Part shown: piece by piece, positions 7,115-43,996 of the stretch
How the letters are laid out: every line of letters begins with the position of its first letter
Position numbering within the stretch: the first letter of the stretch is position 1
From: Candidatus Bathyarchaeota archaeon
Lineage (GTDB): Archaea; Thermoproteota; Bathyarchaeia; Bathyarchaeales; Bathycorpusculaceae
Assembly (NCBI GenBank): GCA_963832745.1
Contig: CAWHVC010000003.1
Location: 128,001 to 192,000 of the forward strand
Length of the DNA stretch: 64,000 nucleotides
Direction of reading: 5' to 3'
Notes under the pieces: generated by a model
What the model was told of the DNA's origin: nothing
The model's database searches: none
What the model saw: the letters and a program-made list of their open reading frames with translations, nothing else
Program-made: the position numbers and the translations under genes

Positions 7115-7132
7115 TAGAGGTTCTATGCAGAA
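7115..7132 (+). repeat. attL: left half of dispersed host repeat + 9-bp core (TAGAGGTTC-TATGCAGAA)
   Basis: Matches the left part of the intact copies at 31112-31148 and 43974-43996 (reverse); similarity stops right after the core. Confidence 0.85.
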
Positions 7133-7142
7133 TGCCTGTGGT

Positions 7143-7338
7143 GTAAAAAGCATGGGAAAATGTAAGATAAGGCGTAAGAAAACACGGTAAAAGTGTAAAT
7201 TTACGCTATTACTCGATTTTCATGGTAAACAGAACGGTAAACAACGGCGTAATCTTACACTTTTTGTAAACAGGCAGTATAAAGGTAAATGGGTGAAAGC
7301 GGTAATTACCTGTGTTTCCTTTGGAAATCACCCTGTAA
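7143..7338 (+). repeat. Cluster of 12 GTAA motifs at the left end of the provirus
   Basis: GTAA at 7143, 7162, 7174, 7187, 7195, 7225, 7237, 7249, 7266, 7285, 7302, 7335; several ~12 bp apart. Confidence 0.55.
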
Positions 7339-7365
7339 ACATGCCCGATTCATTGGAAAAAACAC

Positions 7366-7411
7366 TTATATGCTTGTTTTACCATATCAGCGCTTGGTGA
7401 CATCAGATTGA
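7366..7411 (+). promoter_or_regulatory. Viral early promoter/leader: TTATATGCT box + GCTTGGTGACATCAGATTG (SD + TTG start)
   Basis: Same architecture and nearly the same spacing upstream of the integrase (17398-17444). Confidence 0.7.
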
Positions 7412-8094
7412 AGCCGAGGGCTGTTAGACTCAGCGCTGACTACGAAGCAAGACTACAGAAGGTAAAAGACTTCTATGGTGTTAGTGGCGGTTACTTCTCA
7501 GACGAATTTAGAAAGTTACTGGAAGTCCTTAGCGAGTGCATTGATAATCAACGCCAGTGGCAACAGACCGAGGAAACCTTAGAGAAATCGAAAGCTATTT
7601 TTTGCCAGTTCAGAAAAACCATTGAAATACCACACCGCAACAAAAAAACAGGTGAGGTTATTTGGAAAGAAAAAAACCTTGTATGTTCCCGTAACCCACC
7701 AACCTTTAAGAAAGCGTTTTTGCCGTTGTGTGATATTTGCCAAGCTAACAAGTTCCATCTTAAGCTGACAGAGAACACTATTGTTGAACAGCCCAAAATT
7801 GAAACACCCCTCTATGAAGAGTCTCGAGAGTCACAGGTAGCACCCAAGCCGCAACCCCAACCAATTAAGAAAGAACTCCAACCGATTGTAGGCTGGGAAA
7901 ACTACTCTGTACGCTCTGACGGCTCTAAAGTTTGTCCTTTTGGTGGCTATGTCTATCCAGCAAATTGTAAGCGTTGCAAAGAGGCAGACGATAAAAACAA
8001 ATGGGAAACTTGTGTAGCGCTTCATTATCAGCTACAGACTAACCCCTCGGCTCCAAGAAAATTTGATGCCCTAAACACAACAGGGCGCAATTAA
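7408..8094 (+). CDS. Viral protein with N-terminal ribbon-helix-helix-like segment and Cys-rich (Zn-binding) regions
   Basis: RAVRLS beta-strand then amphipathic helices; CDIC, CPF..NCKRC; SD GGTGA before TTG. Confidence 0.6.
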   Translation: MKPRAVRLSADYEARLQKVKDFYGVSGGYFSDEFRKLLEVLSECIDNQRQWQQTEETLEKSKAIFCQFRKTIEIPHRNKKTGEVIWKEKNLVCSRNPPTFKKAFLPLCDICQANKFHLKLTENTIVEQPKIETPLYEESRESQVAPKPQPQPIKKELQPIVGWENYSVRSDGSKVCPFGGYVYPANCKRCKEADDKNKWETCVALHYQLQTNPSAPRKFDALNTTGRN

Positions 8095-8097
8095 ACT

Positions 8098-8370
8098 ATG
8101 AGTGAGCAAGAAATTAAAACCCCCAAACCTGCAACCTTAACCTATATCCTTGAAGTATCCCCCAAATGCAACAGGCTACAAGTTGAACAAGAAATGGCTA
8201 TTAGCCTGCGCAAGCTTAACGACTGCAAAGCTGTTGATGCTTACCGTTTTGGTGAACTTCTCGGTACAACCTGTAAGGGCAAAGGCATTACTGACGAAAC
8301 GTTGACGGCTGATTTTACCGTGATTCTTGAAACCGATAAAATTGCAGAGCTTCATGGCTCTAAACTTTAG
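8098..8370 (+). CDS. Viral hypothetical protein
   Basis: ATG 3 nt after the previous stop; operon packing. Confidence 0.65.
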   Translation: MSEQEIKTPKPATLTYILEVSPKCNRLQVEQEMAISLRKLNDCKAVDAYRFGELLGTTCKGKGITDETLTADFTVILETDKIAELHGSKL

Positions 8371-8381
8371 GAGCCTTGCAA

Positions 8382-9263
8382 ATGTCCGAAACACCCGATT
8401 TATTATTCCTTGGGCGAGGCTTAGACGAACCAACCCCCGAACCAACCAACACACGCACAGACAGCGACATGTTAAAAGAAATTTTTGAGCAGTACCCAAC
8501 AGCCGAAGAAGCAAAGAAGCATGTCAACGAGGTTGCAAAAGGAGAAAACAAGTTTAACCGAAAATTCAGCAAACCCAACTGCTACAAGGCAATCAAAAAG
8601 AAATGCAACTTCAAAGGCGATAAACCAAAAGTTTCAAGCCATGAAGCAACCGCAAGCATTCCAGAAGGCGAAGAAATAGAACTCCCCATCGAGCCAGACA
8701 CACCAACACAAACCACTTCAACGCACTTTGAAGATGAAAGCGGCATACCTGAACCTCAACCTTACAACCAACCATTCACAAACTACGAAGCCGTAAAAGC
8801 AGAACTACAACCAATCCAAGAACGAAGCGTCAAAGGCTTAGTCAACAACGTTTTTGACATGATAGGCGTTAAAGGCGAAGGCAAAAACGGCGTAGGTATA
8901 ACCGACCAAGAAAGCAAAGATACAATCACACTTTTGCCCTATATTCTCAAAAAAATAACAAAGGGCGAAATGAACCAAGAAACCTATGAGAACCTAACCA
9001 TTGGTTTACACGTTGGCAACATTGCAACCAAAGCAATAAAAAGCAAAGTTGCAGACCGAACAAACAAGGAACTCAAGAAAATTTTTGCAGAACAACCAAC
9101 AACAACACAGAAAATAACCCCTGCACCACAGCCAGCCCCAGCACCCGAACCAAAGCCAGAGCAGACACCCGAAACCAAACCCGAACAGCCAGCCATAAAC
9201 ATAACAAGCAACGACAGCCGAAACACGCCTTTCCTAAAAGCAATGGAGAAAATGCAACACTAA
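8382..9263 (+). CDS. Viral hypothetical protein with acidic/Pro-rich linkers
   Basis: Long ORF, AGGAG upstream; no recognisable motif. Confidence 0.75.
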   Translation: MSETPDLLFLGRGLDEPTPEPTNTRTDSDMLKEIFEQYPTAEEAKKHVNEVAKGENKFNRKFSKPNCYKAIKKKCNFKGDKPKVSSHEATASIPEGEEIELPIEPDTPTQTTSTHFEDESGIPEPQPYNQPFTNYEAVKAELQPIQERSVKGLVNNVFDMIGVKGEGKNGVGITDQESKDTITLLPYILKKITKGEMNQETYENLTIGLHVGNIATKAIKSKVADRTNKELKKIFAEQPTTTQKITPAPQPAPAPEPKPEQTPETKPEQPAINITSNDSRNTPFLKAMEKMQH

Positions 9264-9276
9264 AGGGGTGACAAGA

Positions 9277-9549
9277 ATGAACTTTGACGATTTAAAAACT
9301 ATCTTAGGCGTTATGAAAACAATTATGCCGCCAGAAAGCCGTGAACAAGTTGATTCATTGCTTAAGCTGGGAGAAATAGCTCAAACAGTGTTGCCCAAAG
9401 ATGCCGTTCAAACAAAGCCATTAATGGAGATGCTTAAGCGCTGTCATGTTGAGCAAACCACTTACAAGGGTAAAAAGTGCGTTGCCATTATCATCGAAAA
9501 AATCCCCCCAGCAATCGAAACAACCGCAATAAAGAAGGCAGACGCATGA
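9277..9549 (+). CDS. Viral hypothetical protein
   Basis: GGGGTGA SD before ATG 9277. Confidence 0.65.
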   Translation: MNFDDLKTILGVMKTIMPPESREQVDSLLKLGEIAQTVLPKDAVQTKPLMEMLKRCHVEQTTYKGKKCVAIIIEKIPPAIETTAIKKADA

Positions 9550-9767
9550 AGCCCTTAAACGCCTCAATAGACATGCAACCATACAATGAAGAAACAATCA
9601 GAACCAACCACGCCAACCTAAAAAGACGCTCCATAGCAGACCTTGAAGCAATCATCGACAGCAACCACGCAAGCCTAACCACAAAAGGTTTAGCCTTCCT
9701 ACTACTGCAAAAAAGAAAACCAGCCGAAAAGCGCAAACTGCCGCCTAAGCAGTTTGTGTGTGTGTGA
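9546..9767 (+). CDS. Viral hypothetical protein
   Basis: ATGA overlap with the previous gene. Confidence 0.5.
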   Translation: MKPLNASIDMQPYNEETIRTNHANLKRRSIADLEAIIDSNHASLTTKGLAFLLLQKRKPAEKRKLPPKQFVCV

Positions 9768-9778
9768 GTGTGTGTATT

Positions 9779-10132
9779 ATGAGTTGTAGCAGTCAACACT
9801 CAACCATTCTTTTCTGCCCCAAATGCCCCAACAAAAAAACACTTACATGCCAGTTCTGCAACGGAACCCAACTCAAAGCCGAACTAATCAAAGAACGCTT
9901 AGAAGTCAAAGCAAAAGACAGAAGGCGCAACTTCAAACAAGAAATAGTACACGTTTTCGTTTTCAACAACGGCTTAGTAACGACCACAGACCAAAAAGAC
10001 GATGTAATGCTTCAATTCACAGGCAAACAAGAAACCAAACTGAAAAGCATCAAACAAAGAATTGACAAACAAAAACCCTGCAAAATAACTTGGCATTCTG
10101 AAAGATGCATGAAAGAAGAGGTTTACGTCTAA
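9779..10132 (+). CDS. Viral Zn-finger protein
   Basis: CPKC...CQFC. Confidence 0.6.
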   Translation: MSCSSQHSTILFCPKCPNKKTLTCQFCNGTQLKAELIKERLEVKAKDRRRNFKQEIVHVFVFNNGLVTTTDQKDDVMLQFTGKQETKLKSIKQRIDKQKPCKITWHSERCMKEEVYV

Positions 10133-10416
10133 TGGTAAAGGTGACGGTTCAAAGAAAATGTGAGTTGGTAATTAACCAACTCATAACAAAAGGCTTCCTA
10201 ATTCAAGTTAACCAAAATCACCTTGATGCCGCAATAATGAGAACGCTTAGAGTGATGGATAAGCGAACAATCAAGAACGTCAAAGATGCAATGGTTTGTT
10301 TGGAATACTTAACGGTAACAGCGCCAGAAGTTTACAAGCTCAATCTTGATGCAATCACAGAAAAAGCGACCCTTGAAGAACTGAAAAGCCGACAGGTGAC
10401 AATCAATGAATGCTGA
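10132..10416 (+). CDS. Viral small winged-helix-like protein
   Basis: GAGG SD before ATG 10132; helix-helix-beta hairpin pattern; aligns ungapped with host ORF 45822-46067. Confidence 0.55.
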   Translation: MVKVTVQRKCELVINQLITKGFLIQVNQNHLDAAIMRTLRVMDKRTIKNVKDAMVCLEYLTVTAPEVYKLNLDAITEKATLEELKSRQVTINEC

Positions 10417-10672
10417 AAGACAAGGAATCTTAGTTAACCGTTTAGACTCTATAGAAAAAGAGTATAAATGGGGTAATAAAGACAAAGCATTCCATTACTT
10501 GACGGAAATCTTGAAAGAAGTCATTAGAGAAGAAAGCCAAGATAACCAACGAATCAGCGATTTAATAAACATAACAAAAGAGCATAACGACAACATCAAC
10601 AATCACAGCCAAGCCTTAACGGAACTACAATCAAAGGAGCATGTTCATAATGGAAAGTCTAAAAATAAATAA
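10406..10672 (+). CDS. Viral hypothetical coiled-coil protein
   Basis: GGTGA SD, overlapping ORF chain. Confidence 0.6.
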   Translation: MNAERQGILVNRLDSIEKEYKWGNKDKAFHYLTEILKEVIREESQDNQRISDLINITKEHNDNINNHSQALTELQSKEHVHNGKSKNK

Positions 10673-10832
10673 GAAAAGGACTTTCCGAGTACGAATAAAC
10701 CGTACAGATACAAGAAAAGGCGAACCCTACCTATCCTTAGTAGCATTAACTGATAGATACATCGAATTAGAGTTTCAAAGTGACGCTAACATACAGCCAG
10801 AACTTAAACCATTAATGGAGAGAGAAAATTGA
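10650..10832 (+). CDS. Viral hypothetical protein
   Basis: AAGGAG upstream of ATG; overlaps the previous ORF. Confidence 0.45.
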   Translation: MESLKINKKRTFRVRINRTDTRKGEPYLSLVALTDRYIELEFQSDANIQPELKPLMEREN

Positions 10833-10974
10833 GTATTATTCTTTCTTTCTCTAACAGTAACACACACTCACACACACAAACTTTAGGTAAGGAAATGAAG
10901 CGGTCTTTAGAGGTTCATTGGAACGGAAAAATTCCTTTGCCTAAAACCGTTAAAACCTTCTTAGGAGCTAAACA

Positions 10975-11610
10975 ATGACAATTTTTCCACGCCTAACCAT
11001 GCCAGCAAACCGAGTTTACAAAGATTGCTGGGCAATCATCGGAATGCGGCAAAGCGGCAAAACAAATTTTCTAAAATGGCTCTTAAGCCAAAGCCACGCA
11101 AGATATACAATCTTTAACACAATCGGCGCAATCAAAGATTGGCAACCACTACACCCCAAAATTCAACGCATCGTCACCCCTAACGGCTGGGAAGATATAC
11201 AAGCATGTTTCAGCAAAACAGCTAAAGAAGTATGGAAGCAAGGCAATCAACAATTCATTATTGACGATATCGCAGTAAGGCACGATGTAAAAGGCAAACT
11301 TAAGCCCTTTTTAACTGATAAGTTTTGGATGCATAGCGAGCTTGCTAAAATAATGAATCAAGGCGGCAACCGAAATATCAGTTTATGGTTAAAGGCTCAA
11401 AGAGTCGCACAAGTTCACAACGACCTATTAAGCAACTGCGACCACCATGTAATCTTTAAGCTCTATTTGCCGCAAGATATTGATTGGTATTCTGGCGTAA
11501 TTCCAAAAACGGTTGTTGAAGCAAGCAAAGACCTTCCCGAACACGAATTTATTTATTACAGGCTGGGCGAGCAACCACAGTTTTGCAAAGCCGTTAAAAG
11601 GATGGTCTAA
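10975..11610 (+). CDS. Genome-packaging ATPase, A32/FtsK-HerA superfamily
   Basis: Walker A GMRQSGKT, Walker B FIIDD, GGNRNISLWLKAQR segment typical of FtsK/HerA-type viral ATPases; ~210 aa, directly upstream of the MCP. Confidence 0.85.
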   Translation: MTIFPRLTMPANRVYKDCWAIIGMRQSGKTNFLKWLLSQSHARYTIFNTIGAIKDWQPLHPKIQRIVTPNGWEDIQACFSKTAKEVWKQGNQQFIIDDIAVRHDVKGKLKPFLTDKFWMHSELAKIMNQGGNRNISLWLKAQRVAQVHNDLLSNCDHHVIFKLYLPQDIDWYSGVIPKTVVEASKDLPEHEFIYYRLGEQPQFCKAVKRMV

Positions 11611-11629
11611 CCGTCAAGACCTGACCGCC

Positions 11630-11665
11630 TTACAGACTTCCAAACCCCTTTTTACAGACTTCCAA
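11630..11665 (+). promoter_or_regulatory. 14-bp direct repeat TTACAGACTTCCAA x2 upstream of the capsid gene TATA box
   Basis: Exact copies at 11630-11643 and 11652-11665; TTTTTAAA at ~11679. Confidence 0.5.
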
Positions 11666-11756
11666 CTTTAAGCGACTCTTTTTAAACATTACGACAACCG
11701 TTCTTAAGAGGGCAAAAAGATACGGTTTACGAAAAGTTTTAGGAGAAAACGTAAAA

Positions 11757-12632
11757 GTGGCATTTAGAAAAATATTTGAAAAATTCTCCATAAAAACCGA
11801 TAAAATAAAAGCAAATACACTAAGCTCAACCACACAAAGCACCGCAGACACAGCCGAAACCGTCACCCTTGAACTCCCCAAAAACAAACTCATTTACGGC
11901 GTTGACCTAAGAGTAACCAAAGACACAGACAGCACACTCGTTGACAACATCAACGAAATAAGAGTATTCCTAAACGGCAACCTCATAATCAAAAAATACG
12001 CTGGCGTTGTCGCAAAAGCAATCGCACTTTTGAACGGTCAAAAATGTTCAACAGGCTTCTACAAAATCTATTTTGTTGACCCACAACTCGGCGGCTCACC
12101 AATCCCAGCAGACGCATTAACCACATTCACTGTGGAAATTGATGTTGCAAAGGCAGGCGCAGGCGTAAAGAACGTTATCACACCAACATTGCTGGAAGGC
12201 TTCAAAGAATCTTTCCCACTGGCACTTAACAAAATCTTAGTTGAAAAATACAGCATTTCCAAAGCATACGGAACCGACACAGGCGAACAAGAATACGGTC
12301 ACGAAAGAACCCAAGACATTCTCGGCTTAATCTACGACTTAGGCGATAACGGCACACGAAGCGACACAGCATTCAGTTACTTAACCCTTGAAGGCAAAAG
12401 CCGCACCGAAGAAATCACCCCATACAGCAAAATGGCATTCAACCAAATTAAAGAACTCAACACCCAAGAAAGCAACGGAAACGCCCTTGCAACTGGAATC
12501 TTTGCTTTAACCTTCCCCGAAGGATTAGCCAGTTACAGATTCACCGAACTAAGAAGCCTCTTGAACATTGCCAGCGCTGGAACCAACTGCACAGCCAAAG
12601 TAATTGAGCGCTTCCTAATCAGCGCCCAATAA
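11757..12632 (+). CDS. Putative double-jelly-roll major capsid protein (PM2 P2/STIV-like)
   Basis: 291 aa, all-beta pattern; TLELP-x4-YGVDLR...INEIRVFLNG...GFYKIYF..P...LTTFTVEID resembles the PM2 P2 N-terminal jelly roll (SIKLP..YEVIDLR..IKNVRVELDG..SFHF..P..LTTCEIKFD, from memory); lies between the ATPase and membrane proteins. Confidence 0.78.
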   Translation: MAFRKIFEKFSIKTDKIKANTLSSTTQSTADTAETVTLELPKNKLIYGVDLRVTKDTDSTLVDNINEIRVFLNGNLIIKKYAGVVAKAIALLNGQKCSTGFYKIYFVDPQLGGSPIPADALTTFTVEIDVAKAGAGVKNVITPTLLEGFKESFPLALNKILVEKYSISKAYGTDTGEQEYGHERTQDILGLIYDLGDNGTRSDTAFSYLTLEGKSRTEEITPYSKMAFNQIKELNTQESNGNALATGIFALTFPEGLASYRFTELRSLLNIASAGTNCTAKVIERFLISAQ

Positions 12633-12648
12633 GGTGAGGTGAAAAAAC

Positions 12649-12882
12649 ATGGCACAACAAGTTAAATCCCAAGTTCAAACCCTAAGCAACCGCCTTTTCA
12701 CTTTAGGCGGCACTCACCGAGCAGGTCAACACAGCCTAACAGACGGCGAAATCGTTTGCGCCGCAATCGCAGGCATAATGATTTTTGCCCCTTCAATGTG
12801 GGCGAAAATGCCACTTGTCGGCAAATACGGAAGCGCAATGATAGCCTTTGCAATCATGGTAATCGCCTTCATAATTTGGTAA
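12649..12882 (+). CDS. Viral membrane protein (2 TM)
   Basis: GGTGAGGTGA SD; two hydrophobic segments. Confidence 0.75.
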   Translation: MAQQVKSQVQTLSNRLFTLGGTHRAGQHSLTDGEIVCAAIAGIMIFAPSMWAKMPLVGKYGSAMIAFAIMVIAFIIW

Positions 12883-12896
12883 GGAGCCCCGAGAAA

Positions 12897-12968
12897 ATGC
12901 CACAAAAAAACATGATTTTGATTGCAGTAGCGGCTTTGCTACTGCTCAGCTTTATGAACTGGCTCTAA
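12897..12968 (+). CDS. Viral small membrane peptide (23 aa)
   Basis: AAGGAG upstream; MPQKNMILIAVAALLLLSFMNWL. Confidence 0.5.
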   Translation: MPQKNMILIAVAALLLLSFMNWL

Positions 12969-13018
12969 GTCAGTTCACCCCACTTTTTTTAGTTAAAATT
13001 TAAGGGAGAACTTCAAAA

Positions 13019-13278
13019 ATGTACAAACTTCAAGCTCCAAAAATAAAATTAAGCCCTTTTTCAACGATTCGAGCCGTTGCAGAAGGGGCAAGCGTAAAGT
13101 CCAAAACTGGAAGGATGAAGTTGCAGACGCAGGCATTATCGCAGGCGTAACCTTTTTCGGCACTATAGGCGGTACGGCGGCAACAGGTGCGGCAAACATT
13201 GAAGGTGCATTGATAGCGGCTGGAAGCATATTCTTTACAATTCTTGCATTGAAACGAGGCTTAGTTAAGGAAGAATAA
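13019..13278 (+). CDS. Viral 2-TM membrane protein requiring a -1 frameshift (or a 1-bp deletion)
   Basis: SD AGGGAG + ATG 13019 (0-frame stop 13148-13150). The -1 frame encodes ...WKDEVADAGIIAGVTFFG...LIAAGSIFFTILALKRGLVKEE* with no ATG/GTG/TTG before the first TM. Slippery heptamer C CCT TTT at 13054-13060. Confidence 0.5.
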
Positions 13279-13280
13279 TC

Positions 13281-13505
13281 ATGGTTGCCGCCGCAGTTTT
13301 AGCCGCCCTTGACATCACAGCCGAGGCATGGAAGCGCTTAACGCCAGAGCAAAAGAAGAAACTTAGAGCGAAATATGACGAGGGCGCAAAAGGATTAGCT
13401 AAAGCATGGGCTAAAACTTGGGCTAAAAATACAAAAAACGCAAAAAAGACCGTTAAAACGGTTTCTAAGACTTTTGCAAAGAAAAAGGGCAAGGGGAAAC
13501 GCTAA
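13281..13505 (+). CDS. Viral small highly basic protein (possible core/DNA-binding)
   Basis: 74 aa, Lys-rich C-terminus. Confidence 0.65.
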   Translation: MVAAAVLAALDITAEAWKRLTPEQKKKLRAKYDEGAKGLAKAWAKTWAKNTKNAKKTVKTVSKTFAKKKGKGKR

Positions 13506-13507
13506 AA

Positions 13508-14302
13508 ATGGTTTGGATTAACCATCAAACCCCCAGCAACTACACAAACCGCCATAGAGATTGGTATCAAGGCGTTTTTCAAGGGGTAGTACACGCTTTT
13601 GCATTGTCAGAAGAATACCGCTATTATCTAAGCATGGAAAAAGAATGCGTAGAAATCAATGCTTGGTTTGCGGCTGACTTCTTAGGCATTCTTAGCTGGC
13701 TGAAAAACTTTTTAATTGACACCAAACGCAAAGCATACCAAAACGGTTACGTTGACGCATACGACCAAGCCGCCCTTTCAGCTTGTAAGGTCATGGAGTC
13801 AACCGAAGGACAAGCCAAAGAGCTTCTTAACAGCATAAACAACGCCTACAACAAAGCCATTTCTGAATCTCAAAAAATGGTTACAAACGTCAGCGACTAC
13901 ATTAACAAGAACATAACCCCCGCCCTAAGTGATGCCCAAACCGCAGTTTCAAACATTAAAACCCAAGTAAACGGCGTTGTAACCCAAATTAACGGCATAA
14001 GCTCACAAGCTCAAAGCGCTCTTAACAACGCAAAAACAGCCTTATCCAACGCCGACAGCGCAGTAAATTACATCAATAACACGATTGTGCCGAGTCTAAA
14101 CAACAAGACAAAGCAGATTGACAGCCTTTTAAGTGATGCACAGAGCAAAGCCAGCCAAATAAGCGTTTTAGGCGTTGACATCGGCAAAGTCAAAGAACGT
14201 TTAGCGGCTTTAGAGAAAGGGCAAACCGTAACCACTGGAAGCACAAGCCCAACCGACAGCATCAAAGACACAATTTCCTCAATTTTTAGACCAAAAAATT
14301 AA
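13508..14302 (+). CDS. Viral coiled-coil structural protein
   Basis: Long Ala/Ser/Asn-rich amphipathic helical repeats. Confidence 0.7.
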   Translation: MVWINHQTPSNYTNRHRDWYQGVFQGVVHAFALSEEYRYYLSMEKECVEINAWFAADFLGILSWLKNFLIDTKRKAYQNGYVDAYDQAALSACKVMESTEGQAKELLNSINNAYNKAISESQKMVTNVSDYINKNITPALSDAQTAVSNIKTQVNGVVTQINGISSQAQSALNNAKTALSNADSAVNYINNTIVPSLNNKTKQIDSLLSDAQSKASQISVLGVDIGKVKERLAALEKGQTVTTGSTSPTDSIKDTISSIFRPKN

Positions 14303-14323
14303 CTTTTTCGGAGAGAAAAAAAA

Positions 14324-14482
14324 TTGTTTGACCTACAAAACTTTAACATTGAAACTTTGAAAAATTTAGCAAACCAACACCAAAAAGAGTTAATCATAGT
14401 GGCTCTTGTGGGTGCGGCTTTGCTGTTAGTTTGTATTGCCAAAAAGCAAAAAGTATCACTTAGCGAGGTAGCCAACGCATGA
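14324..14482 (+). CDS. Viral small membrane protein (52 aa)
   Basis: Hand-translated; GGAG + TTG; LIIVALVGAALLLVCIA TM; ATGA overlap with the next gene. Confidence 0.55.
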   Translation: MFDLQNFNIETLKNLANQHQKELIIVALVGAALLLVCIAKKQKVSLSEVANA

Positions 14483-15060
14483 CCGTAATTGACAGCTTCT
14501 TTGATTGGCTTGAAGCCATAGTCAAGCCTAAGCCAGCAACAACTCAGCCCACAGAGACAGGTTTTGAACTGCAACCCGTCATAGAACAAACCGTCATAGC
14601 ACCCAACCCAACCCCAGCCGAAACAATACAGCCATTAACACCAATCACGCCAGCCGACCCCGAACCAACAACCCAACCCAGCACACCCTTTAACAGCTTC
14701 ACTTACAACGATAGCCCAACAGTGACCCCAACGGCAACCCAGCAAACGGCAACACCCCCAGCAGACGCAACACAAGCGCCAGTAGGCAAAGGAATTTGGC
14801 AAATAAACTTGAACTATGGCTTCATAAGGAAAGTCAACGAGCCAGAGGACTATCACTTAGAATATGGCGGCGCTAACGGTACACGCTTTGATATTGGCAC
14901 TGTCGGAATTTACGCAGATGGCATTAACAAAGCTGGCGTTCTTAGCAAAGCTGACATGATAGAGCATCAAGCCAAAGGCGGCAACATTGCAAAAGCTGAA
15001 TCTGGCTGGAATAAGGCGGCAATAGCTGACGCAGAAACCTTAAGGAGGGTTGTTCAATGA
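14479..15060 (+). CDS. Viral Pro/Thr-rich protein
   Basis: GAGGT SD; PT-rich linker + C-terminal globular part. Confidence 0.7.
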   Translation: MTVIDSFFDWLEAIVKPKPATTQPTETGFELQPVIEQTVIAPNPTPAETIQPLTPITPADPEPTTQPSTPFNSFTYNDSPTVTPTATQQTATPPADATQAPVGKGIWQINLNYGFIRKVNEPEDYHLEYGGANGTRFDIGTVGIYADGINKAGVLSKADMIEHQAKGGNIAKAESGWNKAAIADAETLRRVVQ

Positions 15061-15806: not shown

Positions 15807-15810
15807 TTTT

Positions 15811-35591: not shown

Positions 35592-36335
35592 TTGAATAAA
35601 ACAACGTTTCATCAAAGTCGAAATCCAACAATAGCATGCATTGTCTTCTTTGCTGCCTACGTGCTATTCTCAATTCTAAGAGTAAACCTTCAGCCAATCG
35701 ATGTAGCAGTTAACCTTTGGACAATAACAATCCACAACGACATAGCAATCCTTTTGGCAAAAGCACTCTCAACAATTTTTGATACAATAATCATAGTTGC
35801 CGCATCAATAGTGATTGCAACTTTTCTTTTCTTAAAGAAACGTAAAGCCCAAAGTGTATTGCTTTTAACCGCTATAGGTGGAGAAGCCTTATTTGTAAAC
35901 ATCGTAAAAAATATTGACCAAGTCGCCCGACCAGAAAACCAGTTATTGCTTGGTTCCGGCTACTCTTATCCCAGCGGTCACAGTGCAGGCGTGGTTGTTT
36001 TCATCGGGTTAATTGCTTATTATGCTTGGCTAAACTGGGATAGCAGCAAACGTGTAAAGGTTTTTGCTTTGGCAGGTTTTGGTTTGCTTGTTGCTTTTGT
36101 GAGTTTTGACCGTGTCTATCTTAATGTGCACTGGTTAAGTGATGTTGTTGGTGGTTGGTTGTTTGGTGCTTTTTGGTTGTCATTTTGTATTATGGTGTAT
36201 GAGCGGTTGAAGTTTGCGGGCAAGTTTGAGACTGAACGGTTCAATTTCGCCGCCAACATTCTTTTTGGTGTTGGTGTTTTGGTTGCTGTTTCGATTGTTA
36301 CTTTGGGTTGGTTTTTTAATTATTTGACTTTTTGA
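35592..36335 (+). CDS. PAP2 family membrane phosphatase
   Basis: RP, SYPSGH, RVYLNVHWLSD. Confidence 0.9.
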   Translation: MNKTTFHQSRNPTIACIVFFAAYVLFSILRVNLQPIDVAVNLWTITIHNDIAILLAKALSTIFDTIIIVAASIVIATFLFLKKRKAQSVLLLTAIGGEALFVNIVKNIDQVARPENQLLLGSGYSYPSGHSAGVVVFIGLIAYYAWLNWDSSKRVKVFALAGFGLLVAFVSFDRVYLNVHWLSDVVGGWLFGAFWLSFCIMVYERLKFAGKFETERFNFAANILFGVGVLVAVSIVTLGWFFNYLTF

Positions 36336-36447
36336 TTTTTTATTTTCAAGTTTTGCTGATAATTAAGATATATCTTAAGCAGATATACTTATATTTGGCA
36401 AACAACCATTAAAAAACAACAAACACCTTGCAAGCAGGCAACATAGC

Positions 36448-38862
36448 ATGGCAGAGGCAAAAACAAAAAAAATCGTTCTTAACATTGGCGGCATGAGCTG
36501 CATAAACTGCGCCAAAGTAATAGAAAAATATACATCAAAACTAGGCGGTGTAACCCATGTAACCGTCAACTTAGCAGCTGAAAAAGCAATCATAGACTAC
36601 AACCCCGACATCATAGACCAAAAAACAATTGAAGCCACAATAACCGACATAGGCTACCAAGTAATCCATGAGAAAATAGTCATACCAGTCGGCGGAATGA
36701 CCTGCATAAACTGCGCCAAAACCATCGAAAAAGTCCTAAACGCCAGAGAAGGCGTCTACAACGCGGTTGTTAATTTTGCGGCTGAGCAAGTCGCTGTAGA
36801 GTACAATCCTGAACAAATAAGCAATGTAGCCATCAAAAAAGCGATAACCGATACGGGCTACGAAGTTATTGAAACTCAAAAAACCGCAGACGTAGACTCA
36901 GAAAGTAAAGCACGTCAACGCCATATTCAACGCCTAAAGCTTCTCTTAGTTTCAAGCGTTGCCTTGACGATTCCTATCATAATTTTAATGTGGATTCCAA
37001 TTCTGCCTATGGAAATAAACAAAATCGTAATGTTCCTCCTTGCAACTCCAGTTCAGTTTGTTGTAGGCTGGACATTTTACGTCGGTGCATACAAGGCATT
37101 ACGTAACAAAACCGCCAACATGGACACCTTAATCGCAATGGGTACATCCACCGCTTGGATTTACAGCACCATTGTAACTTTTCTGCCAGGCATATTTGGA
37201 GATGCAGCCGTATTCTTTGACACAGCAACCATGATTATGTCATTCATATTACTTGGCAAACTCTTAGACGCCATTGCTAAAGGCCGAACTTCCGAAGCGA
37301 TACGCAAGATTATGGGTTTGCAAGCCAAAGTTGCCCGCGTCATCCGAGACAGCGTCGAACAGGAGGTTCCAGTCGAAGAGGTTCAAGTCGGCGATATCAT
37401 CCTTGTTAAACCTGGAGAAAAAATTCCAGTTGACGGTATGGTTGTTGAAGGTTACTCGGCAGTTGACGAGAAAGTAATAACAGGCGAAAGCATCCCAGTC
37501 GAAAAGAAGGTTGGCGACCAAGTTGTCGGTGCAACCTTAAACAAAACAGGCGTATTCAAATTTAAAGCAACCAAAGTGGGAAAAGACACAGTTCTTGCCC
37601 AAATTATCGGCATGGTTGAAGATGCTTTAAGTTCAAAGGCGCCAGTTCAAAGACTTGCCGACGTTGCAGCAAGCTACTTTGTTCCCGCAATCATACTTAC
37701 TGCCACACTTTCCGCGTTCTTATGGTACTTTGTTGTCGGCGAAACCTATGTGTTCTCATTAACAGTGTTCATAGCAGTCTTAATCGTTGCATGCCCCTGC
37801 GCTTTGGGTCTTGCAACGCCCACAGCCATCATGGTTGGCGTTGGAAAAGGTGCAGAAAACGGCATCCTAATAAAAAGTGGCGAAGCCTTAGAAACAGCCC
37901 ACAAACTTCAAGCAATCGTATTTGACAAAACCGGGACACTCACAAAAGGAGAACCTGAAGTAACCGACATAATCCCACTAATCCCAGAAGCAGAACTTTT
38001 ACAGTTTGCGGCTATTGCAGAGAAAAACTCTGAGCATCCCCTCGGCGAAGCCATCACCCGAAAAGCTGCCATGCAAGGCGTAACAATCGAGGACCCAGAG
38101 TCTTTTGAGGCTATGCCCGGTTTTGGTGTACAAGTCACTTACAACCACAAACAGGTGCTTTTGGGTAACCGGAAACTGATGGAAACTAATAACATTGACA
38201 TCAGAGAGCTTGAACATAAAATGGCTACTCTCGAAGAGGGGGGCAAAACAGCAATGCTTGTTGCAGTAGACGGCAAGTTTGCCGGGTTAATTGCGGTTGC
38301 TGACACGTTAAAAGAACATTCCAGTGAGGCGGTACGTGTGCTTCAACAGATGGGCTTAGAAGTAGTCATGCTTACAGGGGATAATCAGAGAACCGCTGAT
38401 GCAATTGCAAAACAGGCAGGAGTAAACCGCGTGATCGCTGAAGTTTTGCCTGATGAAAAGGCTAACCAAATAAAGAAGTTGCAAGCAGAAGGCAAAGTTG
38501 TTGCGATGGTCGGCGACGGAATAAATGATGCACCCGCTTTAGCTCAGGCAAACATTGGCATCGCAGTTGGCAGCGGAACAGACGTAGCAGTGGAAACAGG
38601 CGATATAGTACTAATCAAAAATGACCTGCGTGATGTGGTAGTTAGCATTCAGTTAAGCCGTGCTACAATGCGAAAAATCAAGCAGAACCTGTTCTGGGCA
38701 TTCTTCTATAACATTATCCTCATACCATTGGCTGCTGGAGCCTTCTATCCAATACTGCATGTGCTCTTTGATCCCGTTTACGCTGCGGCTGCAATGGCAA
38801 CCAGTTCAGTAACTGTAGTAACAAACGCTTCATTGCTAAGGAGATTCAAACCAAAACTCTAA
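36448..38862 (+). CDS. copA: Copper-translocating P1B-type ATPase
   Basis: Two HMA CxxC domains, TGES, CPC, DKTGT, HP, GDGIND, YN/MxxSS. Confidence 0.95.
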
Positions 38863-38900
38863 GTTACACGATAACCAATAGTATGGAGGTGAAACGTTTT

Positions 38901-39134
38901 ATGGCAAAAGATTTAGTTTGCAACATGGATGTTGACGAGAAAACCGCAAAATGGAAAACAGTTTACCAAGGAAAAACATACTACTTCTGCGCTCCAGGAT
39001 GCAAAAAAATGTTCGAAGAAGAACCGGAACTCTACATAAACGCTGAAGTCTCAGAAGACCAGCACCACCAGCATCATCACCATCACGAAGGAGAAGACAC
39101 TAAGAGCTGCGGTTGTGGCTGCGGAGGACACTAA
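38901..39134 (+). CDS. YHS/TRASH metal-binding protein with His/Cys-rich tail
   Basis: KDLVCNMDV..YYFCAPGC; HHQHHHHH, CGCGCGGH. Confidence 0.85.
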   Translation: MAKDLVCNMDVDEKTAKWKTVYQGKTYYFCAPGCKKMFEEEPELYINAEVSEDQHHQHHHHHEGEDTKSCGCGCGGH

Positions 39135-39158
39135 ACCCCCGCTTCTAGTTTTATTTTT

Positions 39159-39833
39159 TTAAATGTCATTTTCTTTCTTTAAAGGCTCAGAAACCGTTGC
39201 CAACAAGATGTTTTCAGCAAACAAGTCCTCATCAAAAGCTCCAACAAAATCAATTTTATCGTTAATTACAACTTTAGGAACACCCATAACATTGTATTTC
39301 ATGCTTAAGTCGGGAAATTCGCTTGTGCTAATAACATCGGCTTTTACGAAGTCACTTTCAACTGCAAGTTTGTGAGCTATAGCGGCTGCAACGGGGCAGT
39401 GTGGACAAGTTAGGGAGACAAAAACTTGAATGTGCACAGGAGATTTAACGTCTTGAAGTATCTTTTTGGTTTTTTCTGTTAAGTCAGTTGATCCCTTTGA
39501 AACGTTAAAGATTGCGTCAATCAGGGCTTGTAATTCGTATCCATAGGGCAATCCGTAGATTCTTACGCCATAATCTTTTGCACCGATAATCGCCAACGCG
39601 GGAATCTTGTCAATTCCGTACTCTTTAGCTTTCGCAGCGTCAGCAACAAAATCGTAAACTTCAACCGACAACTTACCGTTTAAACTAGCGATTTCCTGAA
39701 TTAACCCTCTTGTGTTGTTACAGGAACCGCACTCTATTTCTTGTGTAAACATAACAATTCTGACGGGGTTACTTAGTTTCAGGTTTAAATCGTTTTTTAA
39801 AAGGTCTTTTTTGTCTTCAGGAATCATTCCCAT
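39159..39833 (-). CDS. Protein disulfide oxidoreductase (two thioredoxin folds)
   Basis: CGSC and CPHC; P-x-GYE. Confidence 0.88.
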   Translation of the reverse strand: MGMIPEDKKDLLKNDLNLKLSNPVRIVMFTQEIECGSCNNTRGLIQEIASLNGKLSVEVYDFVADAAKAKEYGIDKIPALAIIGAKDYGVRIYGLPYGYELQALIDAIFNVSKGSTDLTEKTKKILQDVKSPVHIQVFVSLTCPHCPVAAAIAHKLAVESDFVKADVISTSEFPDLSMKYNVMGVPKVVINDKIDFVGAFDEDLFAENILLATVSEPLKKENDI

Positions 39834-39949
39834 AAAATATGTCTCCAGCAAAGAGTGTTCTATTAACCATTAAATGGTTTCAGAACTATATACTAATAGA
39901 ATCAGAGAATCTTGAATATAACTTTTCAAAAAAAGAAGAGTTAAGTTGT

Positions 39950-40894
39950 TTATGCATTATCGCCGTTGAAAACGTGCCTTGATGAACTTGAGGTTTCTTC
40001 GACCAACTGGTGAAGTCCATCAAGAACAAAAGCAAGTCTTTCACCTTTACTGGTTAAACCGTACATTTTTGGTGTTTTGCGAATGAAAATTAGTTTCTTT
40101 CCTTTCAAACCACGTAGGTACTTGTAGGTTCGTCTTATTGAAAGCCCTGTTTCTTTAGCTAGTTTGCCTGCAGAAATGCCTTCGGGACTGATTGCTTCGT
40201 AAACTCTTTTTTCTGTTGGTGCAAGGTTTTCTTTGCTTGGGTCTCGTTTGGATTTGAAGAAGAATATGTAATCTCTTTCTTTTGGTGTTTCAATTAAATC
40301 TTCTTCACGCAGACGTTTTAGGATGCGAGAAGTAATTTTTGGCGCAATTAGTTCTTGTACGTCTTCGAAAGTTTTAGGTCCAGCAAGTAAGGCGCAAAGC
40401 AGTGTTTCTTCGTAACATTCGCTATGTGCAGGAAGTACTGTGCAGTATTCTGGAAAACCAAAAAGTAGCTCAGTTAATCTACCGCCGAAATTGGTTGCGT
40501 AATACTCGTCTCTAGTTTCATTTGCAAGACCTACTTGCATTAACGGACGCAGATACTCAGCGTTGATAGTGTCTTGACTGTGTGTGTGACCTGTTTTTTT
40601 CAGTTCTTGCTGAATCTGACTAACCGAGTATTTGCCTTTAACGATTGATTGTAAAATGTGGAATCTAGTTTCATTTTTTAGGACATTAAATAGGTCTTTG
40701 ATGAAGTTTGGGTTGTCCATTGTGTCACGTAGTTGGCGCAACTCATTTTTTAGTTTGTATACTTGGCAGCGTCCAATACATTCAAGTGGTGATACAGGTG
40801 CACAGTTTCGGCATTCAGTGTCAAGTGTAGACAATAGGTCTGCGAGGTCCTTCTTTTTTTCGCCGTTTTTTATCGGCATTACGACATTTCCCAT
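39950..40894 (-). CDS. Multi-winged-helix protein with Cys cluster
   Basis: CRNC...C...C, then several wHTH-like segments; start placed at ATG 40894 after GAGGGG. Confidence 0.7.
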   Translation of the reverse strand: MGNVVMPIKNGEKKKDLADLLSTLDTECRNCAPVSPLECIGRCQVYKLKNELRQLRDTMDNPNFIKDLFNVLKNETRFHILQSIVKGKYSVSQIQQELKKTGHTHSQDTINAEYLRPLMQVGLANETRDEYYATNFGGRLTELLFGFPEYCTVLPAHSECYEETLLCALLAGPKTFEDVQELIAPKITSRILKRLREEDLIETPKERDYIFFFKSKRDPSKENLAPTEKRVYEAISPEGISAGKLAKETGLSIRRTYKYLRGLKGKKLIFIRKTPKMYGLTSKGERLAFVLDGLHQLVEETSSSSRHVFNGDNA

Positions 40895-41060
40895 TATTTC
40901 CCCCTCTCGACATTGCCATGACGGGTGAAGGAGTAAAGAGATTGGTTGTGAAAAACTTGTAACGTTTTTCGATAGTCCCGTCATGACACGCGTCATAGGT
41001 ATGACAATCGTCAACTTTAAATATATTTCCCCATAAATTACCCAATAATCAGGTGATTGT

Positions 41061-41468
41061 TTGCTGTTACCATGTGAAGTCGGAGTGAAAACAGTTCTGC
41101 CAGCAGTAAAAGCCATAATGGCCAGAACAATCGTAGAAAAACATGGATTAAAAGAAAAAGATACTGCAACGCTTTTGGGTTTGTCGCAATCTGCCATTAG
41201 CCGGTACATGAACCGTGACCGCGGCAATAACCTGCTTGAAATAGAAAACACACTGGAAGTCCAGTTACTTATTGACCAGATGGTTACTTACCTAGTTAAG
41301 GAACCAGAGAAAAAACATGAAATTATGACGTTATTCTGTCAAACCTGCAAAACCATCCGCGAAAAGGGCTTGATGTGCAAACTGTGCCGTAAAGATATGA
41401 ATGAAGACTGGGCTCAAGATTGCGCTTTTTGCAGAGTTGAGGCAATAAAAATCTGCCAACCGCCCTAA
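41061..41468 (+). CDS. HTH transcriptional regulator
   Basis: LLPCE..VK.VLPA, LLGLSQSAISRY. Confidence 0.85.
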   Translation: MLLPCEVGVKTVLPAVKAIMARTIVEKHGLKEKDTATLLGLSQSAISRYMNRDRGNNLLEIENTLEVQLLIDQMVTYLVKEPEKKHEIMTLFCQTCKTIREKGLMCKLCRKDMNEDWAQDCAFCRVEAIKICQPP

Positions 41469-41540
41469 ATTTCATTTCTTTCCAAAGCATCTTGAACGTT
41501 TATTAAAGCCCAGATTAAACTGAAGTTAAGGGATTATGCT

Positions 41541-42479
41541 TTGTCTTCATACGATGAGAAAAACGTTCTAGACATTATCGAAAAAGTGAGCAAAAGTGTC
41601 GTAAACATAAGCACAGTGAAGCTTGTTCATAATATTTTTTATCAAGCAGTTCCAGTCGGCGGTATGGGTTCAGGCACTATAATTGACGCAAAACAAGGCT
41701 TAATCCTGACCAATAACCATGTAGTGGGTGGCGCAGAAAAAATCAACATAACACTTTGGAATAATGAAGTTCTACAAGGTACCATCGCTGGGTCCTGTGC
41801 AATCCATGACATCGCAGTCATAAAAGTCAACGGAAATGATTTACAGGCATCTGAACTTGGGGATTCTGACAAGCTTCGGGTTGGACAACGTGTTTACGCG
41901 ATTGGTAACCCGTTTGGTTTAACAGGTGGACCTAGCGTAACAAGCGGTGTTGTGAGCGCGATTAACCGCACAATTGAGTCTCAACGAGGCGTTTTTGAGA
42001 ATCTTGTTCAAACTGACGCCGCCATCAACCCGGGCAATAGTGGTGGTCCACTTGTGGATTTAGAAGGAAAAGTTGTGGCAATCAACACTGCAATTATCCC
42101 GTACGCTCAAGGCATAGGATTTGCTGTTCCAATTAATTCTGCAAAAACCTGCACAAATGGCATCATAACTGAAGGCGCACCTAAGAGTGCATGGCTGGGT
42201 ATAATCGGTTTAAGCCTGACCCTTGATGTAGCGCGGTATTATGGATTGCCTGTTGATCATGGCGTTTTGGTTACGAAAGTTTCACGAGGAAGCCCGGCGG
42301 CGTCTGCAGGGATAGCTGAAGGTGACATAATTTTAAGTTTAGAAAACGTTGAAATTCATAGAATTGAGGATTTAGTTGCTCAAATTCATAAACGCAAAGT
42401 CGGTGATTCCATTCGAATATTTGCTTTACGTAATAGTCGTGAGCATTACTTTGACTTAACTTTAAGCCAAACTCCATAA
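41541..42479 (+). CDS. HtrA/DegP-like serine protease with PDZ domain
   Basis: LTNNHVV, DIAV, QTDAAINPGNSGGPL. Confidence 0.93.
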   Translation: MSSYDEKNVLDIIEKVSKSVVNISTVKLVHNIFYQAVPVGGMGSGTIIDAKQGLILTNNHVVGGAEKINITLWNNEVLQGTIAGSCAIHDIAVIKVNGNDLQASELGDSDKLRVGQRVYAIGNPFGLTGGPSVTSGVVSAINRTIESQRGVFENLVQTDAAINPGNSGGPLVDLEGKVVAINTAIIPYAQGIGFAVPINSAKTCTNGIITEGAPKSAWLGIIGLSLTLDVARYYGLPVDHGVLVTKVSRGSPAASAGIAEGDIILSLENVEIHRIEDLVAQIHKRKVGDSIRIFALRNSREHYFDLTLSQTP

Positions 42480-42509
42480 TGTAAAATATGTTTTTGTAGG
42501 TGGAATAAA

Positions 42510-42941
42510 TTGAGTAGTGAAGAGCAAATTAAAGAAATCCTAACAAAATACAAGACTATAGCAGTGGTTGGGTTATCAAACACCATTGGAAAACCAAGCC
42601 ACCGAGTAGCTGCATATCTTAAACAGCACGGCTACATCATAATACCTGTAAATCCTACAATCGAAGAAGCTTTAGGCAGTAAAAGCTACAAAACCCTGCT
42701 AGATATACCTCCAGAAATCGCAAAAGGTATTGAGGTTGTGGATATTTTTCGTAAAAGTGAAGATGTGCCGCCGGTTGTTGAGCAGGCAATTGAGCTTAAG
42801 CAGCGGTATGGTCAACCCTTCGTGGTTTGGATGCAGCTGGGTATCCGTAATGAGCTGGCGGCTGAGGCTGCGAGGCAAGCGGGGCTAATTGTGGTTATGG
42901 ATAAGTGCATGATGAAGGAGCGCCTCCACCTGTTTCCTTAA
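42510..42941 (+). CDS. CoA-binding protein (YccU-like)
   Basis: IAVVGLS, PVNP, VDIFR, WMQLG, MDKC. Confidence 0.9.
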   Translation: MSSEEQIKEILTKYKTIAVVGLSNTIGKPSHRVAAYLKQHGYIIIPVNPTIEEALGSKSYKTLLDIPPEIAKGIEVVDIFRKSEDVPPVVEQAIELKQRYGQPFVVWMQLGIRNELAAEAARQAGLIVVMDKCMMKERLHLFP

Positions 42942-42945
42942 TAGC

Positions 42946-43809
42946 TTATGCGGCCCCCAATATCAATGAAGCAACCGTTGCAATTATCACGATTGCCAGA
43001 GTCTCTGCCAAAGTTACCTTCCAGTTGACACGCGTTTTCTTTGAACGATACCTGACCAGAAAGATGCCCACTATGGCAACAACCAAAGCCAGAGAAACCA
43101 CGATGTTGAAGACTGGTGGAAGCAGTAAGTACGCAGCTATGGGTATAATCCCTGCTACGAACGTGGTGGTTCCACAGATTATTGCAGCATAAAGATTCGA
43201 ACGATGAATTTCTTTACCTAGCAACGTGAATAGCTTTTGCACTAGTATCAAAGATTTGTCGCGTTCTTTTTTGTCCGGAATGTCGCTTAAACTGTAATTC
43301 ATCAATGTTTGCAGCGTCATGATATCGGCAAGGTCTTCAGTGATACCGCCAAGTAGAAAACTGGAAAAGTTGGTGATAGCAACTGCACTCAAAGTTAGAA
43401 AAGCTGCGAAGACTACAGCGTTTGGGTTACCAAGAAATGTTGATGTGCCTGCGAAAGTGGCTATGAATGCTGAGAGTATAACGACAAGACTTGTCACTGA
43501 ACCGTCAACAAGTCCTGCGACAACTTCCATAATAGGCTCCTTTTTCAATAGTAGGCTTTCCCATTCTTTGCCCAGTTTTTGGCCCTGAGTAGTTAACTGG
43601 ACGTATTCGCCGTCTTCTCTAAGTAGCCCTTCGTTACGCATTTCTTTAAGTGATTTGTCTAGTTCACTCATTTCCACGCAAGTGTAGCTGACGCAGACAC
43701 GGTCAATTTTGCCTTTGAGAACTGACTTTTTAATTTTAGCGCCCTTGCTTAAATTTAAAAGAACAATTACCCTAATGACATCTGGTAAATCTTGTATTTC
43801 AAATGCCAC
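42946..43809 (-). CDS. Membrane protein: N-terminal wHTH-like domain + VIT1/CCC1-like TM region
   Basis: VQLTTQG wing; GLVDG TM motif and ~5 TM segments. Confidence 0.6.
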   Translation of the reverse strand: MAFEIQDLPDVIRVIVLLNLSKGAKIKKSVLKGKIDRVCVSYTCVEMSELDKSLKEMRNEGLLREDGEYVQLTTQGQKLGKEWESLLLKKEPIMEVVAGLVDGSVTSLVVILSAFIATFAGTSTFLGNPNAVVFAAFLTLSAVAITNFSSFLLGGITEDLADIMTLQTLMNYSLSDIPDKKERDKSLILVQKLFTLLGKEIHRSNLYAAIICGTTTFVAGIIPIAAYLLLPPVFNIVVSLALVVAIVGIFLVRYRSKKTRVNWKVTLAETLAIVIIATVASLILGAA

Positions 43810-43957
43810 TTAACAACTTCACCAATTTAATACTCAACTGAGATTCAAATTGACTAATAACTCTTATGCGACAAACTGAACCTTTCCGATGGCGTCAAGG
43901 CACAAATTGGCGTACTTTCGGGGTGATTTTACGGGTTTAAAGCCTACCCATTTGTGA

Positions 43958-43996
43958 ATAGGTAGACCCCCTATAGGTTTCTGCATAGAACCTCTA
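43958..43996 (-). repeat. Intact copy of dispersed intergenic repeat (reverse strand)
   Basis: Reverse complement of 43974-43996 is TAGAGGTTCTATGCAGAAACCTA, 23/23 with the reconstituted attB, followed by a G-run. Confidence 0.85.

Follow-up and report, generated by a model that had tools for sequence, protein, structure and literature searches.

The window examined here is a stretch of 64,000 nucleotides from contig C3 of a Candidatus Bathyarchaeota archaeon assembly (G000; NCBI accession GCA_963832745.1, contig CAWHVC010000003.1, positions 128,001 to 192,000 of the forward strand). The assembly comprises 3.02 Mb in 5 contigs, with a G+C content of approximately 0.42. The window contains an integrated virus-like element that carries its own predicted integrase gene and is bounded by the two halves of a short host repeat (Table 1). 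The 9-mer TATGCAGAA is read at positions 7124–7132, where the left half-repeat ends, and again at 19654–19662. An initial annotation of this DNA had proposed that the provirus entered a dispersed intergenic repeat and not a tRNA gene, and the letters on which it relied are as it described them. When positions 7115–7132 are joined to 19662–19680, the resulting string is identical to 31112–31148 at 34 of 37 positions (three differences), while its 23-nt core matches the reverse strand of 43974–43996 at 23 of 23. A search of the window for this 23-mer at up to three mismatches returned these two places alone (31112, with two mismatches; 43974, with none), against no match in 100 shuffled sequences. 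The two half-repeats lie in the same orientation, and their coordinates in a profile of the repeat family abut with a slight overlap. No tRNA gene is found at the window junctions, and Rfam at gathering thresholds identifies only a tRNA-Gly in the whole window. The element thus interrupts one copy of a dispersed host repeat and appears not to have a tRNA gene as its target.

Table 1. Features of the integrated element, the repeat copies and the inverted segment in the window, and positions of integrated relatives in other genomes.
Feature	Position	Strand	Basis
Left half-repeat, host side of attL	7098..7132	+	Profile 14-49, E 3e-4; TATGCAGAA at its end
Integrated virus-like element, ~12.5 kb	7133..19653	+	Bounded by repeat halves; absent from G008, G381 and G433 spacers
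Element left arm (P' arm of attP)	7133..7432	+	AAAAGCATGGGAAAATGT at 7146-7163 and 11 copies of [GT]GTAA[AG]
Putative genome-packaging ATPase	10975..11610	+	phrog_2666 'terminase large subunit', E 8.9e-14; weak AAA_14 match
Probable major capsid protein, PM2 P2 (double jelly-roll) type	11757..12632	+	Sub-threshold Pfam P2_N match and atlas score
Divergent tyrosine recombinase (integrase), 498 aa	17402..18898	+	Family profile, AlphaFold2 (AF2) model, Foldseek
Small zinc-ribbon open reading frame near right end	19379..19564	+	Weak Zn_Ribbon_Prim match, E 0.0042; 42%-identical homologue in G438 element
Right half-repeat, host side of attR	19649..19699	+	Profile 37-86, E 6.8e-7; second 9-bp core at its start
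Intact repeat copy R1	31089..31170	+	Profile 9-91, E 3.2e-19
Segment inverted relative to closest relative G008	31171..43884		Strand and order of four flank matches, G008 contig C6
Intact repeat copy R2, exact core, inverted relative to R1	43962..44027	-	Profile 1-66, E 1.3e-17
Degenerate second copy beside R2	44032-44086	-	Profile 15-67, E 0.0037
Integrated relatives with TCTGGAA core	L159 (G438:C1) 2615-10885; L151 reverse strand (G233:C9) 11454-19769		
Integrated relative with TCTGGAA core	L152 (G104:C71), right end at 6267		

The repeat is approximately 60–80 nt long and is present in 137 copies in G000, as counted with an iterated nhmmer profile. Most copies (125) are intergenic, overlapping crude open reading frames (ORFs) by no more than 10% in a genome with a crude coding fraction of 0.817. 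The 23-mer of the integration site has 95 matches in G000 at up to five mismatches, six of them exact, and the core of R1, TATGTAAAA, differs from the integration core at two positions. Repeat orientation is unbiased with respect to neighbouring genes (39 convergent, 34 divergent, and 25 and 39 in the two tandem arrangements). The conserved part, about 60 nt in length, comprises one to three tandem CCTATTWGG units, a variable hexamer and TATGCAGAAACCTATAGGGGGTAGG; behind the latter, a hairpin module and a related second module are often found, which gives the repeat a modular build. The AGGTT-N9-AACCT dyad pointed out in the initial annotation is present in the integration copy but does not extend to the family, as its full 19-mer occurs only six times in G000 and the family varies in its left arm. 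No consensus structure was predicted by RNAalifold from 93 near full-length copies. The repeat also has the character of a mosaic: a full copy often precedes a GGGGTCTACC...GGTAGAC hairpin module (L040, L088, L037 and the G381 stretch L165), and the second module contains the GCAGAA...CTAAGGGGGGTAGG block again, with a hairpin tail.

Of 401 genomes sampled across the class, 24 contain an exact 19-mer of the repeat. All 24 belong to the window's own family (six genera), and only 10 of the 40 genomes of its genus have the 19-mer; the reversed pattern, used as a control, gave no matches. A degenerate 21-nt pattern searched against one genome per prokaryotic species returned at least 113 stretches. 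Among the 80 matches listed, 79 are in metagenome-assembled genomes (MAGs) named as Bathyarchaeia, Bathyarchaeota or Thermoproteota archaeon and one is in a Bacteroidales MAG (L038, 967–987). The latter, the sole exact 21-nt match outside archaeal MAGs among those listed, may be due to chance or to a mis-binned contig. Neither element proteins nor element ends were found in the 113 loci with the repeat pattern that were retrieved (0.85 Mb). Eight matches to the right half of the repeat alone at these loci were rejected as junctions, being second modules behind a full copy.

Empty counterparts of the integration site are present in three other genomes. In the closest relative, G008, the flanks are 87% identical to those of the window, and the distance from the HAD-hydrolase gene to the exosome genes is 641 bp. 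Within this spacer, an uninterrupted repeat carrying the exact 9-mer lies in the same orientation, and the element is missing. The corresponding spacer of G381 (207 bp) contains an intact two-module copy of the repeat and that of G433 (approximately 1.1 kb) a full copy, again with no element in either. Among the products of the flanking genes are both RNase PH-type subunits of the exosome and ribosomal protein S13, which identifies the host as an archaeon. The empty sites in relatives and the 9-bp core standing at each end mark the element as an integrated provirus bounded by att sites.

Two further copies of the repeat were entered by related elements. In contig C5 of G000 (85384–85432), a left half-repeat ending in the 9-mer adjoins 158 nt with 89% identity to the left end of the element, beyond which lie ordinary host-like genes. 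No right half-repeat was found within 15 kb of this remnant, and no element protein is encoded there; the site is best read as the scar of a related element. When the left end of the element was compared with 120 genomes of the genus, matches were identified in three more genomes. In one of these, G433 (contig C1), a left half-repeat ending in the 9-mer continues directly into 127 nt with 81% identity to the left end of the element; the 20 kb retrieved around this remnant yielded no tRNA gene. The host flanks differ among the window, C5 and G433 insertions, and three different copies of the repeat were thus entered at the identical base. A gapped junction pattern applied to the genomes of the family matched in 19 of 332. 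Most of these matches were judged by eye to be coding or ambiguous, those in G446 and G473 have flanks that are mutually homologous to the left and right, and only those in G000 (twice) and G433 fall within repeats, so that this pattern added no clear insertion to the three.

The surroundings of the C5 scar contain other features. Just to its left, a degraded tyrosine recombinase reading frame with four stops (C5:84639–85013) and a tRNA-like gene that ARAGORN leaves unassigned (anticodon 'ca'; C5:85211–85296, L001 5211–5296) are found, and an older second mobile element may once have been located there. Downstream of the scar, a PAS-domain ORF and a HisKA-domain ORF occur as separate short frames (C5:88432–89231, L001 8432–9231), which may represent a broken sensor kinase gene.

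The split repeat could in principle reflect a misassembly at the repeat, or a virus carrying a full repeat copy that entered by homologous recombination. Misassembly is in general common at dispersed repeats, and this genome resembles one assembled from a metagenome. Both accounts, however, predict full repeats at both ends, whereas complementary halves that share only 9 bp are seen. An overlap of 9 bp is too short for an assembler, and the junction is seen again on a second contig and in a second genome. As for homologous recombination, the 23-mer was found at up to six mismatches in none of 13 metagenome contigs encoding relatives of the integrase. An origin of either kind is extremely unlikely, and the evidence favours an insertion into the repeat.

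The ORFs of at least 60 aa in the element lie mostly on the plus strand. The putative packaging ATPase gene is located directly upstream of the capsid candidate, and homologues of the ATPase that are 47–50% identical adjoin a capsid gene in four metagenome contigs (L004, L007, L009 and L010). The capsid candidate matches the Pfam family P2_N below threshold (E 0.0024; 18 bits, against a cut-off of 25), a match that is seen in one of five aligned homologues. Its language-model feature score in the atlas is 0.97 to clusters annotated as 'major capsid protein P2'; the recognition value is 1683, at which, by the tool's own account, a high score is weak evidence. A sequence-profile search of the candidate against solved structures gave no match. 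Based on these similarities, the gene probably encodes a capsid protein of the PM2-type double jelly-roll class. An atlas look-up of the ORF at 8376–9263 gave nothing usable (best score 0.86).

PM2-like viruses have a vertical double jelly-roll capsid protein and a packaging ATPase encoded next to it. The element shares several features with them, namely a small circular double-stranded DNA genome of 10–13 kb, an ATPase gene directly upstream of a gene for a putative P2-like capsid protein of approximately 290 aa, and a temperate lifestyle. Relatives of PM2 include the euryarchaeal proviruses TKV4 and MVV. Unlike the PM2-like reference viruses, the type described here has a capsid homology below the Pfam cut-off and belongs to a host of the class Bathyarchaeia. 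In a survey of Bathyarchaeia viruses, four families are named, while 'double jelly' and 'Varidnaviria' appear nowhere in the text (PMC10848311). Within the portions of their main text that were available, neither this survey nor the Bathy-6 genome paper (PMC11697101) mentions the element type or the repeat.

The integrase of the element (P0001), whose true start is probably near 17441, is remote from known families in sequence. As a single query it had no match at threshold in Pfam or PHROGs, and a word-indexed search returned only three relatives; an exhaustive profile search, by comparison, recovered 126 cluster representatives of the family. A profile built from 83 relatives matches archaeal XerA (5hxy, E 1.4e-19; 4a8e, E 1.9e-16), and 65 of the 83 relatives match the tyrosine recombinase family PF00589 at E ≤0.1 (best 1.9e-18). 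An AF2 model of P0001 from the same alignment has a predicted local distance difference test score (pLDDT) of 88.3 and a predicted template modelling score (pTM) of 0.81; an earlier model from four sequences (pLDDT 43.8) was discarded. With the better model, Foldseek retrieved 20 PDB matches at E ≤1e-3. The best is the integron integrase IntI4 (2a3v, 5.4e-6), followed by XerA, XerH, lambda Int and Tn1549 Int, and Cre is also found. All of the matches listed (15, with extra chains omitted) are tyrosine recombinases, except YopR at rank 16, which is a recombinase-like prophage repressor. The predicted structure argues for a tyrosine recombinase catalytic-domain fold in P0001. The initial annotation's assignment of the protein at 17441–18898 to the tyrosine recombinases is thus borne out by profile and by fold.

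The catalytic set of tyrosine recombinases comprises Arg-I, a beta-hairpin Lys, His-II, Arg-II, His/Trp-III and a Tyr nucleophile. Across the 83 relatives, the corresponding positions are conserved to different degrees: R258 and K283 in all 83, H394 in 71, H408 in 65 and Y430 in 82. An N-terminal helix-turn-helix is predicted in many members of the family (HTH_29 in 22 of 83, HTH_23 in 19 of 83). The integrase gene is uninterrupted in the provirus, with the right junction at 19654 lying 755 nt past its stop codon; as the gene is whole, the enzyme is not an integrase of the gene-splitting SSV type. P0001 presumably performed the integration, and would be active despite the lysine that it carries at the Arg-II position. 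A peptide-pattern search for integrase relatives in genome contigs and viral contigs yielded none that could be confirmed. The closest integrase homologues (G104, G367 and G233; 37–39% identical) have no other element gene in common with the window element and no split repeat at their loci, where a direct-repeat search gave only short, unconvincing pairs that were rejected.

The two ends of the element can be compared with those of viral relatives. The left 300 nt contain 11 copies of [GT]GTAA[AG], whereas 300 nt of the window contain 0.78 on average; these copies are putative arm-type sites or iterons. The left-arm motif is conserved in the relatives at the same distance from the core, and in the window element TATGCAGAA takes the place of the core, 13 nt ahead of the motif. 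Among the 13 metagenome contigs with integrase relatives, four of 12–13.5 kb (L004, L007, L009 and L010) also carry the ATPase and capsid genes, and a 123-nt terminal overlap indicates that L004 is circular. In L004, L007, L012 and L014, arm sites, the core-position sequence and the AAAAGCATGG motif follow in equal order downstream of the integrase gene. Here (T)TCTGGA(A) is located 15–19 nt before AAAAGCATGG, while the short repeated words on either side differ between viruses. In the integrated relatives G438 and G233, the same layout is split over the two ends and the 7-bp sequence TCTGGAA is found at both junctions. In the reconstructed host site of G438, the 7-nt sequences on the two sides of the core form a perfect inverted repeat, which is the classic shape of a core site.

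The 9-bp direct duplication flanking the element would also be expected if an unrecognised transposase with a strong preference for the repeat had made a staggered cut, the 9 bp being a target-site duplication. Insertion sequences that target REP sequences show such a preference. The same duplicated sequence at all events could also be produced by a very target-specific transposon. Yet no transposase family was detected among 20 element ORFs searched against Pfam or 10 of these searched against PHROGs, no terminal inverted repeats are visible at the two ends as read, and the element encodes a tyrosine recombinase. The core-position sequence of the sister group is, moreover, present once in circular L004 and in three linear contigs and doubled in integrated copies, as conservative recombination predicts. 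Transposition is accordingly a very improbable explanation. The att layout is instead characteristic of site-specific recombination of the conservative kind, with arm-type sites.

The relatives with the TCTGGAA core (integrase 25–39% identical) occupy unique sites that are neither repeats nor tRNA genes and whose flanks are unrelated between genomes. The flanks in G233 and G438, searched in their own genomes and in three or four others, gave no dispersed repeats. Distant homologues therefore sit at unrelated sites with a constant 7-bp core. As the latter use TCTGGAA at unique sites, repeat targeting would be a trait of a sub-lineage and not of the integrase family.

Taken together, the data are best explained by site-specific integration into a dispersed repeat, a reading held with high confidence. 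A temperate virus of approximately 12.5 kb, encoding an integrase of its own, a packaging ATPase and probably a PM2-type capsid protein, would have been integrated by conservative site-specific recombination into one intergenic copy of the repeat. Its integrase is a divergent tyrosine recombinase that has a helix-turn-helix region near the N terminus and comes from a family where Arg-II is usually a lysine. Strand exchange would take place within the 9 bp TATGCAGAA common to attP and the repeat, leaving one copy at each junction. The predicted order in attP, which is that of the relatives, starts on the side away from the integrase with a few arm-type sites and continues with the core, 13–19 nt, AAAAGCATGGG and an array of short iterons. 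We infer the exact exchange points, as well as any part of the repeat that is recognised beyond the 9-mer. Since the core lies inside a repeat with dozens of near-identical copies, each genome would offer many potential attB sites, at least three of which appear to have been used.

How much of the repeat is recognised bears on this last point. The integrase may need only a match to the 9-bp core, perhaps with weak flank preferences, and may have evolved no recognition of the repeat as such. TATGCAGAA occurs 104 times in G000, and nearly half of these occurrences (48) are inside repeat copies. If the 9-mer were sufficient, all three events would fall in repeats by chance in about 1 of 10 cases, so that the three insertions are weak evidence for recognition beyond the 9-mer. 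The variable left arm of the repeat and the unique sites with unrelated flanks in the TCTGGAA relatives also fit a requirement for the core alone. On the other side, each of the three clear events lies in a repeat and at the identical base, and the G433 remnant stays identical to the repeat for 4 bases past the 9-mer, such a 13-mer occurring 39 times in G000; the sample is too small to decide. Recognition of the core alone is somewhat unlikely.

In addition to the chance estimate above, several observations weigh against site-specific integration into the repeat by P0001. A match in G346 (contig C8; L190 reverse strand, approximately 2094–2215) has the same core and the AAAAGCATGG motif 8 nt past a tRNA-Arg(CCG) gene, outside any repeat, which would also favour the core-only account. 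No element genes were found within 18 kb of it, and it may be either a chance match or a scar left outside the repeats. Where the G433 remnant ends on its right side is uncertain, as a natural second module resembles the right half of the repeat. The presence of the 9-mer in attP of the free element is deduced by analogy, because none of the circular relatives has a TATGCAGAA core. No free or excised form of the window element was found, and no sequencing run contained more than 0.11 of the window's sampled words. With respect to the enzyme, P0001 alone matches PF00589 at only E 0.082 (13.1 bits, against a cut-off of 27.1), and its Arg-II position, aligned to the R of XerA HVLRHTF, is K398, with lysine in 65 and arginine in 16 of the 83 relatives.

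Among known systems, the Nf1/MDA prophage of Neisseria is the closest documented analogue in the literature available, as its attachment site is likewise a short multicopy intergenic repeat; it targets dRS3, present in approximately 700 copies per N. meningitidis genome, and its integration sites are variable (PMC7058167, as far as available). Unlike that filamentous single-stranded DNA phage of a bacterial host, the element described here is found in an archaeon and has a probable icosahedral capsid gene and a tyrosine recombinase. The recombinase of Nf1/MDA is of the Piv/IS110 type and is not a tyrosine recombinase. The repeat, for its part, is reminiscent of repetitive extragenic palindromic (REP) sequences, bacterial interspersed mosaic elements (BIMEs) and neisserial intergenic mosaic elements (NIMEs), in that a short, modular, multicopy intergenic repeat is the landing site of a mobile element. 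Unlike REP/BIME sequences, the repeat has no conserved hairpin, and its lander is a virus with a tyrosine integrase. The Y1 (RAYT-type) transposase PF01797 has no match in G000, while the control was positive in 6 of 14 genomes.

In the available portion of a 2021 review of archaeal tyrosine recombinases, targets are described as mostly tRNA genes, with a few unique intergenic or protein-coding sites (PMC8371274). A dispersed repeat is not among the targets given, and the terms 'repeat sequence' and 'repeated sequence' do not occur in its text. According to the same review, integrases of the SSV type have attP within their own gene, so that integration splits it (PMC8371274). P0001 is, like these, a tyrosine recombinase encoded by an archaeal virus; unlike them, it has a gene that stays whole, with attP 755 nt downstream. 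With pNOB8-type (lambda-like) integrases and XerA it shares the fold, the catalytic residues, a gene that is intact after integration and arm-like repeats beside a short core. It differs from them in its remote sequence similarity, the frequent lysine at Arg-II and the dispersed-repeat target. A literature search, covering sources available in part, returned neither an archaeal dispersed-repeat attachment site nor a tyrosine-recombinase prophage in REP elements. The results support a new case, an archaeal provirus with a tyrosine integrase and a dispersed repeat as its attachment site, of a kind known from the repeat-targeting prophage of Neisseria.

With an attB of many copies, the position of lysogeny can be polymorphic, related proviruses and scars can accumulate, and the repeats can become breakpoints of rearrangement. 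A small, capsid-bearing type of temperate virus and a recombinase family are also added to the few viruses known from Bathyarchaeia. This class has few cultured members. The neutrality of the repeat as a 'safe harbour', proposed in the initial annotation, is hypothetical, and use of the integrase and repeat as an integration tool, as suggested there, is speculative.

Rearrangement is seen within the window itself. The 12.8-kb segment between R1 and R2 is inverted with respect to G008 (C6:297893–313245), and repeat copies are found at the G008 junctions. The flanks of the repeat copy at 31.1 kb are also apart or on opposite strands in G381, G433 and G339; as the flanks are rearranged in these genomes too, the repeats mark a hotspot of rearrangement. 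Homologous recombination between copies or the action of the integrase could be behind the inversion. Integrase-driven inversions have been described for pTN3 of Thermococcus (PMC8371274, in the part available). A more far-reaching scenario is that one sub-lineage of the virus, in an undescribed family of small, capsid-bearing temperate Bathyarchaeia viruses, switched its core from a unique chromosomal site of the TCTGGAA type to one inside the many-copy repeat and so gained dozens of landing sites per genome, and that its integrase, by acting on pairs of repeat copies, also reshuffles the chromosome, the 12.8-kb inversion being one such event. This combination is unlikely; if true, the reshuffling would parallel the pTN3 inversions, but would proceed through true multicopy att-like sites.

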